In this document: one piece after another, positions 12,479 to 16,538 of the stretch
Layout: each line of letters opens with the position of its first letter
Position numbering within the stretch: position 1 is the first letter of the stretch
From: a virus
Direction: 5' to 3' (one strand)
UHGV virus genome: UHGV-0095065
DNA length: 21,484 nucleotides
The notes under the pieces: generated by a model
Database searches by the model: none
Told to the model about the DNA's origin: nothing
Seen by the model: only the letters and a program-made list of their open reading frames with translations
Translations under genes and position numbers: made by a program

Positions 12479-14425
12479 TCATGCCGCGGCGTCCGCGTTA
12501 TTCACTTCCACCGTAATGCTGTCTATCAGTACCGGGTAAGTCGCACCTTTGGTAATGTCTGTCACATGCAGTTTATCCGCCGCAAAGGCACTGACCGGTG
12601 ACTGCGTCAGCGTGAACGGTGTGCCATCCTGACCATCAAGAACCGGCGTCACCTGAAGGCTGTTATTCCCGGCAAAGCGGAAGGCCAGCGTATGCCATTC
12701 GTTATCAAATGCGCCAAAGCTTCCCAGCTTCAGGTTGTTTGTCGCCACTTTCGCATTGTGGTACATCACATTCAGGTCTTTTGCATCCGTCTGGATGTAG
12801 AACGCTGCCAGCAGGTTATTCCCCCCATCGCCGGTCAGGGCAACGCCCTGTGGCAGTGAAGATACCGGCCAGTAAAACGCCATAACATACTGGTTCGCCG
12901 CCAGCGCTCCCGAAGCCTTAAAGCGGCAGCGAATCTGCCCCCCTTTCTGTAACAGAGCCGCGCCGTTGCCCGCAGCGTACTCCAGCACCCAGGTGCTTTT
13001 ACCGGCTTCCTTGGTCAGCTTCACAGCCTTACCTCCGGTTCCCTCCGCATCGCTGACCACTTCTGCCCTGCCGCCACTGGCTGACCATCCCTGTGCTTTC
13101 AGGCTTCCCTCTGACTCGCTGGCAAGGTAAGAGAGCAGTGTTGTGACGCCTGTGACTTCTGCACCGGAAGGCGATGACGGGCGCACTTCTGATACTGTCG
13201 ATGATGCCCCCGCGTTTAGCGCCACTCTTCCCGCATGGCGCAGAATCGCCGTTGCCAGACGGTCGGAAATAATCGCGCGGCGAGCCCATGAACTGAAATG
13301 GCTCTCCCTGTCCTGTGACGTCCAGGTGGCTGAGCTGTCACGCCATTTCGAACCGTAATACCCGATACCCGGAATGTCCGGGTCTTCTTCCGGTTTGTTC
13401 GTCGGCACATTCACCCCGTTCTCATCCGTCATGAACGGTACGAAATGGATATTCTTTTCCGTTTTGTTTTTATAGCTGCCGTACACCGTCTGGTACGTGG
13501 ATTCGTTCTTCTGCTTCCAGAAATACGTCGTGTCCCCGCATATCCAGGGAACACCGCCAGCAGAGCCACCAACGCACTGGCCTGCCATATCCGTCAGGTC
13601 TGCACGGAATTTATCAACCAGCGCACCAAACTGTGCTGCGTGATTTCCGGGCGTGCCGCCAAAATCAAATTCCCCCTGCATCCACACCACGGCAAACAGC
13701 ACATTTTTCGGGTTCTTCTTCAGTGCTGCTTTTGTTCGACCGATAAGGTCCTTATACAGCGGCTTGTCCACACCCCAGCGGGTTGAATTCTCCGAGGCAC
13801 CACTCGCATCACTGTATGTGCCATCGGCTCCGGTGGTGAACGCAGAGCCACCACGGCAGCAAGGTACCAGCAGAATGCCCGCATTCGCCGGTATAAACGG
13901 CAGCAGTTTTTTGGCGATATGCAGCCCCTGCCCCACGGTTCCGTACTGCCCCTTTGACAGATCCGCTTTCGGATGGTTAAGGCGGCTCATGTCCTGCACA
14001 TCATGCAGACAATGGTCCGCCGGAATGATGTCGTTATATCTGCATGCTGCACCACCCGGTGTCACCGTACTGCGACGCGCCAACTGCTTAATACGCGGCT
14101 CCGGACGGTCATATGTCTCCGGCAGCGGAAGACCTTCACCATACGACATGCCGTTTGACTGCCCTGCCAGAACCACAACAAAGTAATACTCCGGGTCGCT
14201 GGTGGCACTGATTACTGCACCTTCTCCACCTGTCGGCTTCACCACAACAGGTGTGCTCACATCACCTTCTGCGACAATCGCCTGAATAAGTGCTGCGCCA
14301 TCATCCGTATACGAAGAAAACGGCCCACCGTATGGTTGCCATCCTTCACGAATTTTTTGCGCAAGTGCATCAGCAAGGTCTGACGGCGATGCCGTCCTGA
14401 CCACATCGTAATGTTTAAATGTCAT
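12479..14425 (-). CDS. nanS-p: Prophage sialate O-acetylesterase (NanS-p-like; SGNH/SASA domain)
   Basis: 648 aa; RBS GGGAGGA; internal VVVLAGQSNGMSYGEG contains the GQSN(M) SGNH-hydrolase motif; size and position (downstream of the stx-equivalent locus, upstream of lysis genes) match the NanS-p esterases of Stx prophages. Confidence 0.8.
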   Translation of the reverse strand: MTFKHYDVVRTASPSDLADALAQKIREGWQPYGGPFSSYTDDGAALIQAIVAEGDVSTPVVVKPTGGEGAVISATSDPEYYFVVVLAGQSNGMSYGEGLPLPETYDRPEPRIKQLARRSTVTPGGAACRYNDIIPADHCLHDVQDMSRLNHPKADLSKGQYGTVGQGLHIAKKLLPFIPANAGILLVPCCRGGSAFTTGADGTYSDASGASENSTRWGVDKPLYKDLIGRTKAALKKNPKNVLFAVVWMQGEFDFGGTPGNHAAQFGALVDKFRADLTDMAGQCVGGSAGGVPWICGDTTYFWKQKNESTYQTVYGSYKNKTEKNIHFVPFMTDENGVNVPTNKPEEDPDIPGIGYYGSKWRDSSATWTSQDRESHFSSWARRAIISDRLATAILRHAGRVALNAGASSTVSEVRPSSPSGAEVTGVTTLLSYLASESEGSLKAQGWSASGGRAEVVSDAEGTGGKAVKLTKEAGKSTWVLEYAAGNGAALLQKGGQIRCRFKASGALAANQYVMAFYWPVSSLPQGVALTGDGGNNLLAAFYIQTDAKDLNVMYHNAKVATNNLKLGSFGAFDNEWHTLAFRFAGNNSLQVTPVLDGQDGTPFTLTQSPVSAFAADKLHVTDITKGATYPVLIDSITVEVNNADAAA

Positions 14426-14619
14426 GAATCCTCCCGGCCGGGATAGTGTACTGAATCAGATAAAGAGCGGGCTGAAGTCCGGAAGTTACAGGACAATGGC
14501 AGAAGGGAGACTTACAGCCCGCAATTCGAAAAAGGCCGCGCAGTTGCGCAGAGTGATTACCATGGGGTATTATTCGCCAGCTGAAATATTACTTCACGTT
14601 TTGTTGTTTATTCCTTGCC

Positions 14620-14648
14620 GCCCGCGTCTCCCAGCGCGGGCTTTTTTT
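14620..14648 (+). terminator. Intrinsic terminator, plus-strand orientation
   Basis: GCCCGCG-TCTCCCAG-CGCGGGC followed by TTTTTTT on the plus strand. Confidence 0.55.
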
Positions 14649-14652
14649 GCCC

Positions 14653-14679
14653 ATAAAAAAAGCCCCTCCGGAGAGGGGC
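14653..14679 (-). terminator. Intrinsic terminator, minus-strand orientation
   Basis: Minus-strand GCCCCTC-UCCG-GAGGGGC (perfect 7-bp GC-rich stem) followed by UUUUUUUAU; lies about 400 nt downstream of the TerB-like gene and about 230 nt upstream of nanS-p. Confidence 0.7.
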
Positions 14680-15075
14680 TTCGCTACGTGTCTGTTAGCC
14701 ATATGCATGGTGCCGGGTGCCTCCCGGTGAGTTCAGTATCAGCACCTGAACCCGCACAGAAAGGATAGAGTAGAAACACCTGCGCTGATATGCCCCTCCG
14801 CTCAGGGGGATTCACCATGCCAGTTTCTTTTAACAAACTCCCCGCAAACCAGACAACTGTCAACCGTCTGAATTGTGAGACATTTAAAATTTTCAGGGCA
14901 TGACTGATACCCGGCTAACTACCTGACATCTCCTTTTTCACCAAAGGAAAAAGCACCACCACAATACCGACCACCAGCACTCCATCCGCCAGCACCGACA
15001 TGATCCTGCTGGTGAAGTCCACCATCACCACCAGAAACAGCAGGAGTGCCACAGCGGCCAGACGCAGTTTTACCG

Positions 15076-15507
15076 TCACAGGTGGTTCTCCAGTCGCAGG
15101 CCAAGAACACCGGCGATCTCTTCCAGAACCTTACGCTCTTCCGGCTCAATTTCACCATCTGCTTCAGCAATGGCCACCGCCACATCCAGCACATCTTCCG
15201 CTTCACGCGTATCGTGTTTCACATCTTCAATTTCACGCAACGCCGCTCGACGACCAATTTTAAAGTTGGTGTCAAGCTGACCTGTGATCGTGGCACTGAT
15301 GGCATTAATTTCTGACGTAAACGCGGACAACGCAGGCTGGTTACGCAAGACCTGCTCGATCTTCGCTTTCTCTGAAGCCTCACATTCACCATCTGCATAG
15401 GCCACCAGATAGGCAGCATTAATAACCGCCTGTGCCAGATCACGTTTCTCAAACTTTTTAATTTCCGCTGCTGCTCTGCGGGTTTTCTTTTTGAAAATAC
15501 CAAACAT
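15076..15507 (-). CDS. TerB-like (tellurite-resistance TerB domain) protein
   Basis: Start at ATG 15507 (AGGAA 7 nt upstream): MFGIFKKKTRRAAAEIKK...AAYLVAYADGECEASEKAKIEQVL...DVAVAIAEADGEIEPEERKVLEEIAGVLGL; repeated ADG-E helix pattern typical of TerB fold. The track ORF start at 15579 is probably too far upstream. Confidence 0.65.
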   Translation of the reverse strand: MFGIFKKKTRRAAAEIKKFEKRDLAQAVINAAYLVAYADGECEASEKAKIEQVLRNQPALSAFTSEINAISATITGQLDTNFKIGRRAALREIEDVKHDTREAEDVLDVAVAIAEADGEIEPEERKVLEEIAGVLGLRLENHL

Positions 15508-15637
15508 CGTGACGTTCCTTTGGGTGGGTGAGCCAACGCCCGGGAGCGATCTGCCCACAGAGAAAGTCACACTGACCACTCCGTAAGCTCACCCCCGAAA
15601 GGCTCTGTGGTTGATATGCGCCGGGCGTGGCGCGGAT

Positions 15638-15663
15638 ACAAAAAAGACCCGCAAAAGCGAGCC
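15638..15663 (-). repeat. 26-bp direct repeat copy A (terminator-like), downstream of the moron gene
   Basis: ACAAAAAAGACCCGCAAAAGCGAGCC; 24/26 identical to copy B; on minus-strand RNA forms GCUCGC-UUUU-GCGGGU (with G-U pairs) followed by CUUUUUUGU. Confidence 0.55.
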
Positions 15664-15683
15664 ATAACATCAAAAAATAACTA

Positions 15684-16205
15684 TTATCCTGAGAACTTCT
15701 GATCCGCAATGAAGCGAATCATCATGCTCTTAATATATTCAGACGCTTCTACGTATCGTTCAGCCTCTTCACCTTTGGAAACATATAACTCAGCTCGTTT
15801 ATCACTTCTGAAGTTGGAAAGCGACATCCCTATTTTTATAAGGTCATCGCAATACTCCATAGTTATATATGCTGGCACAAACATATTTCCCGTCGGAGTT
15901 TCATTAATTAATGTACATATTCTGAACTCAATCACACCATCCTTATTCATCCCAAGACATGAGGGTGAACATTCCTCATACCTTCCGCTCTCGGTCATCC
16001 GCTCGATCCTGACCAATCGCTCCATATCCAGCGCAGAGCTTTCACCACTAAGCGAACACGCATAACACTTCTTCAGAAGTTTAACTTCCCGCCTCAGGGA
16101 ATCATGAACACGCGCGTTATGCCTTCTCATCTCATCATATGCATGTTGAATATCACTATACGTAATCACCGAACGGACCTCCGGAAGCGACTGAAAAATA
16201 AACAT
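15684..16205 (-). CDS. Hypothetical protein, AT-rich moron (174 aa); CxxC...CxxxC cysteine pattern; function unknown
   Basis: Start ATG 16205 with strong SD GGAAGGAGGT; MFIFQSLPEVRSVITYSDIQ...KKCYACSLSG...EECSPSCLG...; coding region visibly AT-rich compared with its GC-richer flanks (judged by eye); occupies the position where Stx phages carry stxAB. Confidence 0.75.
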   Translation of the reverse strand: MFIFQSLPEVRSVITYSDIQHAYDEMRRHNARVHDSLRREVKLLKKCYACSLSGESSALDMERLVRIERMTESGRYEECSPSCLGMNKDGVIEFRICTLINETPTGNMFVPAYITMEYCDDLIKIGMSLSNFRSDKRAELYVSKGEEAERYVEASEYIKSMMIRFIADQKFSG

Positions 16206-16286: not shown

Positions 16287-16363
16287 TGGCGCGTTGTACT
16301 GGATTCGAACCAGTGACCGATTGCTTAGAAGGCAATTGCTCTGTCCGGCTGAGCTAACAACGC
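16287..16363 (-). tRNA. argO: tRNA-Arg (anticodon UCU), argO-like
   Basis: Minus-strand GCGTTGTTAGCTCAGCCGGACAGAGCAATTGCCTTCTAAGCAATCGGTCACTGGTTCGAATCCAGTACAACGCGCCA; cloverleaf with T-loop GGTTCGAATCC, anticodon loop CTTCTAA, encoded CCA. Confidence 0.9.
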
Positions 16364-16376
16364 TGAATACCGATAA

Positions 16377-16453
16377 TGGACCGCCATCGAGGACTCGAAC
16401 CCCGCGCAGCCAGCTTCGAAGGCTGGCGCTCTATCCCGATGAGCTAATGGCGG
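16377..16453 (-). tRNA. argN: tRNA-Arg (anticodon UCG), argN-like
   Basis: Minus-strand CCGCCATTAGCTCATCGGGATAGAGCGCCAGCCTTCGAAGCTGGCTGCGCGGGGTTCGAGTCCTCGATGGCGGTCCA; anticodon loop CTTCGAA; full 7-bp acceptor stem (C1-G72). Confidence 0.85.
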
Positions 16454-16462
16454 TATGTGATA

Positions 16463-16538
16463 TGGTGGCCCTTGCTGGATTTGAACCAGCGACCTGGCGA
16501 TTATGAGTCGCTCGCTCTCACCACTGAGCTAAAGGGCC
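16463..16538 (-). tRNA. ileZ: tRNA-Ile2 (anticodon CAU, lysidine type; Met by anticodon alone), ileZ-like
   Basis: Minus-strand GGCCCTTTAGCTCAGTGGTGAGAGCGAGCGACTCATAATCGCCAGGTCGCTGGTTCAAATCCAGCAAGGGCCACCA; very similar to E. coli ileX/ileY tRNA as recalled. Confidence 0.85.

Follow-up and report, generated by a model that had tools for sequence, protein, structure and literature searches.

A Probable Convergent Small-RNA Dyad between Late-Promoter Cargo and nanS-p in a Lambdoid Prophage

The window, a 21,484-nt stretch of DNA from viral genome UHGV-0095065, is a lambdoid prophage late region transcribed on the minus strand. Between its TerB-like gene and nanS-p lie a gene for a small membrane protein and two small RNA (sRNA) genes that face each other. 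This arrangement is very probably (about 85%) a convergent sRNA dyad module of the lambdoid-prophage type, placed between late-promoter cargo and nanS-p. The minus strand, in the sense of late transcription, would encode an STnc100-family sRNA that stops at a strong terminator, and the plus strand a base-pairing Hfq-type sRNA of the EcOnc08/21/42 kind that stops at a second one. The original prediction, which offered a plus-strand or a minus-strand sRNA as alternatives, was essentially right in its reading of the interval: both are present, and the feature was already known. Nearly identical relatives of the interval have been published, and elements of its kind are known.

Genomic setting

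The features of the interval and the order of the late genes around it are collected in Table 1. Over 1.4 kb around the interval the window shares 99.9% identity with the E. coli GE3 chromosome. In the RefSeq record of GE3, TerB, DUF3927 and the esterase are annotated, and the stretch from the DUF3927 gene to the nanS-p homologue carries no annotation. Among the 30 matches listed of 1124 matching E. coli genome records, no feature covers 14440-14650 with one exception, a partial match that lies under a DNA methyltransferase gene. Thus the earlier statement that the interval has no annotated gene is true for the sRNA part, in the GE3 record and in the E. coli records among the matches listed. 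The companion statement, which puts every credible gene on the minus strand, is true of the protein-coding genes checked.

Some details of the surrounding cargo were also seen. The tRNA at 16463-16538 (minus strand) is called tRNA-Met (CAT) by ARAGORN and tRNA-Ile (ileZ type) by RefSeq; its CAT anticodon is presumably lysidine-modified, and the gene is part of the ileZ-argN-argO trio usually found downstream of Q. The 173-aa cargo ORF between the tRNAs and TerB (15684-16205, minus strand) matches phrog_5091, a PHROG of unknown function, and Pfam gives no match to it; a terminator-like site at 15663-15646 follows. A reading of TerB, DUF3927 and their neighbours as a defence system was rejected, the PADLOC matches being only weak (E about 1e-3).

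Table 1. Features of the interval and of the late region around it (window positions)
Feature	Position	Strand	Remarks
DUF968, RusA, antiterminator Q	18210-19031	-	First in late gene order
DNA methylase		-	After Q in late gene order
tRNA-Met(CAT)/Arg/Arg	16287-16538	-	After DNA methylase
173-aa ORF, TerB, DUF3927		-	Between the tRNAs and the interval
Interval between TerB-like gene and nanS-p	14426-15075		Holds small membrane-protein gene and two facing sRNA genes
DUF3927/TciB-like small membrane protein gene	14915..15079	-	54 codons; Pfam, PHROG, RefSeq
Putative -10-like hexamer TTAAAT of the STnc100-type sRNA	14882..14887	-	First element conserved across upstream contexts
STnc100-family sRNA gene (EcOnc05/EcOnc27/sRNA103 type)	14649..14849	-	Rfam RF02076, full length
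Rho-independent terminator of the STnc100-type sRNA	14655..14682	-	10-bp stem 14682-14659, U7 14661-14655
Plus-strand Rho-independent terminator	14620..14648	+	8-bp stem (7 G-C pairs) 14620-14641, U7 14642-14648
Seed CCUUGCC	14613..14619	+	Just 5' of the terminator; identical in the window
Predicted 70-nt short form	14579..14648	+	41 nt with little predicted structure, then terminator
Putative internal promoter	14544..14573	+	-35 TTGCGC 14544-14549, 18-nt spacer, -10 TATTAT 14568-14573
Plus-strand Hfq-type sRNA, long form, EcOnc08/21/42 type	14466..14648	+	5' end about 14378-14466
nanS-p RBS and start codon	14423..14435	-	GGGAGGA 14435-14429, ATG 14425-14423; sequence, ORF, Pfam DUF1737+SASA+DUF6645
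DUF1737-SASA-DUF6645 esterase, nanS-p type		-	Pfam; after the interval
Lysozyme, Rz, terminase		-	Beyond the nanS-p-type esterase

The two terminators

A plus-strand terminator and a strong minus-strand terminator had been proposed to sit tail to tail, and both were found in the sequence and by a terminator scan, their 3' ends separated by a gap of 6 bp. The plus-strand hairpin reads GCCCGCGU-CUCCCA-GCGCGGGC. The scan of 2.5 kb returned 5 terminator-like sites against 2.2 +/- 1.5 in shuffles, an excess that by itself is poor evidence. Stronger evidence comes from position: each terminator falls at the 3' end of an sRNA detected experimentally in near-identical loci, that of the EPEC sRNA for the plus-strand terminator. 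The minus-strand terminator is the terminal helix of the STnc100 Rfam model and is also present in the predicted fold. The plus-strand stem shows one compensatory change, from G-C to A-U at 14626/14635, in 2 of 31 variants. Both terminators are real, each ending one sRNA gene.

The minus-strand sRNA

The minus-strand sRNA that had been suggested within 14680..14915, ending at the strong terminator, is an STnc100 gene. Its match to RF02076 spans the whole model (positions 1-206 of 206) and scores 147.2 bits (gathering score 47; E 3.9e-33). The alignment has few non-canonical pairs, the terminator and the internal conserved hairpins are present, and the helices are reproduced by the minimum-free-energy fold. 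The Hfq-CRAC peak of EcOnc05 from strain Sakai maps to about 14671-14787. Hfq association or expression has been shown for homologues, by Hfq-CRAC and northern blotting for EcOnc05/27 and also for sRNA103. In EHEC the family is represented by the Hfq-bound sRNA EcOnc27/sRNA103, whose overexpression raised the fimZ and espA transcripts (PMC12711010). Members also lie downstream of stx2B in 933W (208 bits) and downstream of stx1B in BP-4795 and a Sakai-derived Stx1 phage.

A consensus sigma-70 scan of 13500-16000 called no promoter, and promoters were therefore inferred by comparison. Among 36 distinct upstream segments, conservation of the STnc100 locus starts at TTAAAT regardless of the sequence further upstream, and this hexamer is a putative -10 element. 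A start near 14874-14876 would yield an RNA of about 221 nt, a length that agrees with the ~222-nt northern band of EcOnc05 from Sakai Sp4. A perfect TTGACA at 14863-14858 could drive a second, shorter form.

Two segments of the gene, 14761-14795 and 14683-14700 (minus strand), are 55-63% identical among copies while their flanks are 83-92% identical; they may be variable regions for target recognition. The copy in PP6 of EPEC E2348/69 (positions 1121-1297 of extract L001) scores just 75.5 bits, and its alignment with the window fails over the 5' part. It may be IS-truncated, because an ISEc13 transposase gene lies about 140 bp past it. The convergent plus-strand sRNA of PP6 was still detected by RIL-seq, despite the weak STnc100 copy.

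The plus-strand sRNA

The unannotated plus-strand transcript originally proposed to end at the plus-strand terminator corresponds to a homologue of the EcOnc08/21/42-type Hfq sRNAs, with a long form that is antisense to the nanS-p 5'UTR. Its 3' part matches the printed sequence of the EPEC E2348/69 RIL-seq candidate E2348C_1409.E2348C_1408.IGR, the EHEC homologues of which are EcOnc08/21/42 (PMC8550237). The EPEC PP6 locus aligns closely with the window over the whole plus-strand sRNA, and the published coordinates 1444978-1444797 convert to 14466-14648. The module of Sakai Sp4 is 91% identical to that of the window, and the Sakai Hfq-CRAC peaks map to 14482-14568 (EcOnc21) and 14574-14646 (EcOnc08). 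The Sakai northern probe aligns with 14540-14574 and differs from the window at six positions, counted by eye. The published sizes disagree: a northern band of ~271 nt in Sakai and an estimate of 182 nt in EPEC. Inspection by eye found no convincing promoter hexamers inside nanS-p for the ~271-nt form.

The EPEC RIL-seq targets carry a motif, GGCAAGG/GGCAGGG, that is complementary to CCUUGCC, the proposed seed, which in the window is followed directly by the terminator stem and U7. According to PMC8550237, the EPEC homologue is always the 3' partner in Hfq chimeras, and its partners include the 5'UTRs of cfa (767 chimeric fragments) and dppA (197), along with pcm (118), perA (30), tir (29) and espC (26). 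Energies computed with RNAduplex for the cfa and dppA leaders were no better than those of shuffled sRNA (156 and 113 of 500 shuffles, respectively, did at least as well). Covariation was sought in the plus-strand fold, but the homologues, mostly 90-100% identical, are too similar and one compensatory pair was seen; the long-range alifold helices are supported by G-U/A-U wobble only.

No Rfam family matches the plus strand at gathering score. A sub-threshold OmrA-B match at 14560-14648 (26.1 bits against a gathering score of 40, E 0.011) was set aside as a terminator resemblance, since the terminator supplies most of the score; CCAUGGGGUAUUAUU in the same segment resembles the OmrA/B 5' end. 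The 11-mer UUACUUCACGU at 14589-14599 (plus strand) also occurs in the Spot 42 RNA (spf) of E2348/69, at nt 40-50. This identity may be a coincidence, because a match of this kind with some known sRNA has, on a rough estimate, a chance of about 0.1. A second 11-mer, TCACGTTTTGT, matches just upstream of spf.

A shared promoter and exchangeable cassettes

A 25-nt anchor from the shared part of the locus (14527-14551) retrieved 120 IMG/VR stretches; once the window and reference loci were included, 118 extracts could be used. They comprise 72 loci with the cassette type of the window, 45 of AsxR/AgvB type and one hybrid (L029). The STnc100 core is present on the opposite strand in 117 of the 118, including 71 of the 72 window-type loci. 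The cargo up to 1.5 kb from the dyad, on the side of the late promoter, is Stx (Stx1, Stx2), TerB with DUF3927, DUF3927 alone, or none. Since the cargo behind the dyad differs among loci, the dyad is a cargo-independent module.

All cassette types have a hairpin containing TTGCGC, with a -10-like hexamer exactly 18 nt on. In this register the hexamer is TATTAT in all 72 window-type loci and TAAAAT in 43 of the 45 AsxR/AgvB-type loci. An internal plus-strand promoter of this kind would be missed by a consensus scan, because its -35 matches at just 3 of 6 positions. Read on the minus strand, the shared hairpin (14536-14551) looks like a weak terminator (CUGCGCAACUGCGCGG + CCUUUUUCG). The Rfam AsxR match in 933W begins 6 nt past the -10 of that locus, and the AsxR start has been mapped by RLM-RACE. 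Applied to the window, the AsxR register gives a start at A14579 and an RNA of 70 nt; the short form is thus a prediction from the register shared with AsxR/AgvB. Its position agrees with the EcOnc08 Hfq-CRAC peak. Such an RNA would have escaped the published northern probe, the target of which is upstream of 14579.

Among 48 distinct loci, pairwise identity is highest in the short form, at 100% for its -10 and 98.4% for its body. It falls to 86-93% in the upstream part of the long form and to 55-84% in parts of STnc100. The hybrid locus keeps the hairpin, the -10 and a divergent short-form body; over the roughly 30 nt that were inspected on the upstream side of its anchor, it does not obviously resemble the window.

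These comparisons also bear on other explanations of the plus-strand gene. It is possible, though doubtful, that it is a third cassette of the AsxR/AgvB system, with the shared promoter and a 70-nt RNA whose near-invariant body of 41 nt copies pieces of the seeds of core sRNAs. The copied pieces may be the 11-nt Spot 42 identity and a GcvB-R1-like GU-rich run that fits the dppA leader. In that case the long form on northern blots would be a distinct RNA, made by read-through or as an antisense transcript. If this were true, the phage would enter the catabolite and amino-acid regulons of the host by seed mimicry and not by sponging, and would do so beside a sialic-acid esterase gene.

A second explanation is that the plus-strand RNA mainly acts in cis, blocking the 5'UTR and RBS of nanS-p and keeping the esterase silent in lysogens. 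The ~271-nt size puts the 5' end near 14378, inside nanS-p and across the SD and ATG, and the 5' part at 14467-14526 is common to all cassette types beside nanS-p. However the EPEC start at about 14466 falls short of the SD (14429-14435), the antisense part is the least conserved of the RNA, and the hybrid locus retains the promoter and the short-form body without obvious similarity in the upstream stretch inspected. The long form would cover the RBS and ATG only if it started upstream of about 14435. Cis-antisense action is possible for a long form; as the main role of the RNA it is unlikely.

The hairpins could also be a bidirectional transcription insulator between cargo and late genes, the short RNAs being targetless by-products. 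Their tail-to-tail placement with 6 bp between, a site just before nanS-p and the lysis genes, and the fact that a phenotype is known for neither sRNA family would fit such a device. An insulator-only role is nevertheless improbable, because conservation is higher upstream of the plus-strand hairpin (98.4% pairwise identity) than within it (94.7%), a pattern that an insulator does not need. In addition the homologues are abundant Hfq ligands with reproducible, motif-bearing partners. Finally, a 114-codon plus-strand ORF exists at 14424..14768, and some phage records annotate short hypothetical proteins in the interval, but the GE3 RefSeq record has no annotation there and the ORF was rejected as the source of the signal because a 1-nt indel breaks the frame in the Sakai and E2348/69 homologues and it crosses both terminators.

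The hydrophobic ORF

The short hydrophobic ORF pointed out beforehand exists; its extent was given as 36 codons (14915..15025), which is the C-terminal two thirds of a 54-codon gene and would drop the first hydrophobic segment. The GTG start of the full ORF overlaps the TerB stop (GTGA), the 4-nt overlap being also present in the GE3 RefSeq record. The protein matches Pfam PF13064 with 58.8 bits (cut-off 25) and PHROG 1470, [quoted passage not shown], with 87 bits (E 1.1e-24). Kyte-Doolittle analysis shows two hydrophobic peaks at about residues 5-21 and 29-47. By profile and hydropathy it is predicted to be a TciB-like two-helix membrane protein, a result that fits the earlier idea of a membrane peptide.

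The upstream TerB gene matches PHROG 632, "tellurite resistance". The mechanical TerB ORF (15076-15579, minus strand) has 167 codons from a GTG; a 143-codon form from the ATG at 15507 is favoured by RefSeq and by PHROG 632 (positions 1-143 of 143). In phage P1 the TerB-like tciA and tciB form a pair. The DUF3927 gene would be a separate unit, translationally coupled to the TciA-like TerB gene. It is not tied to the sRNA pair, because elsewhere the pair also follows Stx1, Stx2, TerB with DUF3927, or none of these. It is moron cargo and lies outside the pair.

A model for the dyad

In the preferred reading, a convergent dyad of two sRNA genes, the slot would consist of cargo inserted downstream of the Q-dependent late promoter, then the dyad, then nanS-p as the first conserved late gene. 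In a lysogen each RNA would have a promoter of its own, associate with Hfq and regulate host and virulence mRNAs in trans, as suggested by relatives of the two. The plus-strand RNA may pair through CCUUGCC and the adjoining GU-rich stretch with leaders such as those of cfa and dppA, to judge from its homologues. For both sRNA families, function has so far been described by overexpression effects and interaction maps. From general knowledge, the paired terminators would block stray transcription from either side in the lysogen, and during lytic growth Q-modified polymerase would pass both of them, as expected from Q antitermination.

Distribution and significance

Of 5426 complete E. coli genomes, 1117 contain the plus-strand sRNA region; the interval as a whole is present in 353 phage records, most of them from Stx-converting phages. 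The exact pattern of the short-form body had no match in 185,579 species-representative genomes. The only hits of the anchor pattern in other taxa were a hairpin that matched by chance and an 888-bp contig assigned to Xanthomonas pisi. This contig (NZ_JPLE01000080.1 of X. pisi DSM 18956, extract L132) is a 933W-like Stx2-phage fragment with an AsxR/STnc100 dyad and is probably assembly contamination.

The interval is real but ordinary, because the arrangement has already been described in E. coli prophages of the Shiga-toxin type, and it has little weight as a discovery because the dyad and both RNA families are already published. It has value for annotation: RefSeq leaves the sRNA pair unannotated, and Rfam covers half of it, with no family for the plus-strand sRNA. 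The view of a shared promoter with exchangeable cassettes leads to a concrete, testable prediction of the short form.

Comparison with known systems

A "convergent sRNA dyad" between the Q/PR' moron site and nanS-p was described for lambdoid prophages by Tree et al. 2014 (Mol Cell), and in Sakai the prophages Sp3, 4, 5, 9, 10, 11, 15 and 17 carry such dyads (Tree et al. 2014). The EHEC dyads occupy the same slot as that of the window, with cargo genes, the dyad and a conserved nanS-p-type ORF, and are tail to tail in both. The Sp4 dyad, EcOnc05 with EcOnc08/21, is 91% identical to the window dyad. The cargo differs: the window has TerB and DUF3927, whereas the Sakai dyads have Stx or nothing, and the Sp4 dyad comes directly after the tRNAs. 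The reason for the dyad arrangement was called unclear in a 2021 review (PMC7873438).

The STnc100 copy of the window (RF02076) is a full-length model match with a terminator in a prophage context, and scores 147 bits against 208 for the 933W copy. PasD1 and PasD2 of EPEC have been said to be related to STnc100 (Zhu, Shabalina & Storz 2026 preprint). Like the STnc100-type gene of the window, they represent a sense-strand sRNA between DUF3927 and an esterase gene, in PP2 of E2348/69, and the PasD2 (PP2) terminator hairpin aligns with the window hairpin at 14536-14551. Unlike the window, however, the PP2 locus has no STnc100 match at gathering score, and its alignment shows no counterpart of the plus-strand terminator or sRNA body.

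AsxR (RF02703) and AgvB (RF02702) have in common with the window RNA the plus-strand slot, the hairpin with the -35 TTGCGC, the 18-nt spacer and the -10 register, and in all of them a largely unstructured 5' body precedes the terminator. The body and terminator sequences in contrast are unrelated, and the predicted length is 70 nt against 51-60 nt for AsxR/AgvB. An assignment of the plus-strand RNA to AgvB or AsxR was rejected: Rfam gives no match to either at E <= 10 in 14380-15100, and the 3' regions, with the conserved ~42-nt part, cannot be aligned. On 933W and BP-4795 these models reach 88 and 57 bits, respectively. The RIL-seq partners of the EPEC homologue covered here are mRNAs (5'UTRs and coding regions) and not core sRNAs, unlike those of the anti-sRNAs AsxR/AgvB.

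The cargo also has a known likeness. In the TciA/TciB phage pair a TerB family protein is followed by a hydrophobic protein of ~54 aa, with stop and start overlapping, and the window is arranged likewise; the function of the pair is known only by name, as tellurite/colicin resistance and inhibition of cell division.

The closest relatives of the plus-strand gene are EcOnc08/21/42 and E2348C_1409.E2348C_1408.IGR, with homologous sequence and the same strand, terminator and CCUUGCC seed, and with a small number of base changes relative to the window, located in the -35/-10 spacer and the loop of the terminator. As in the window, these genes are convergent with an STnc100-type gene and lie directly upstream of, and divergent from, nanS-p.
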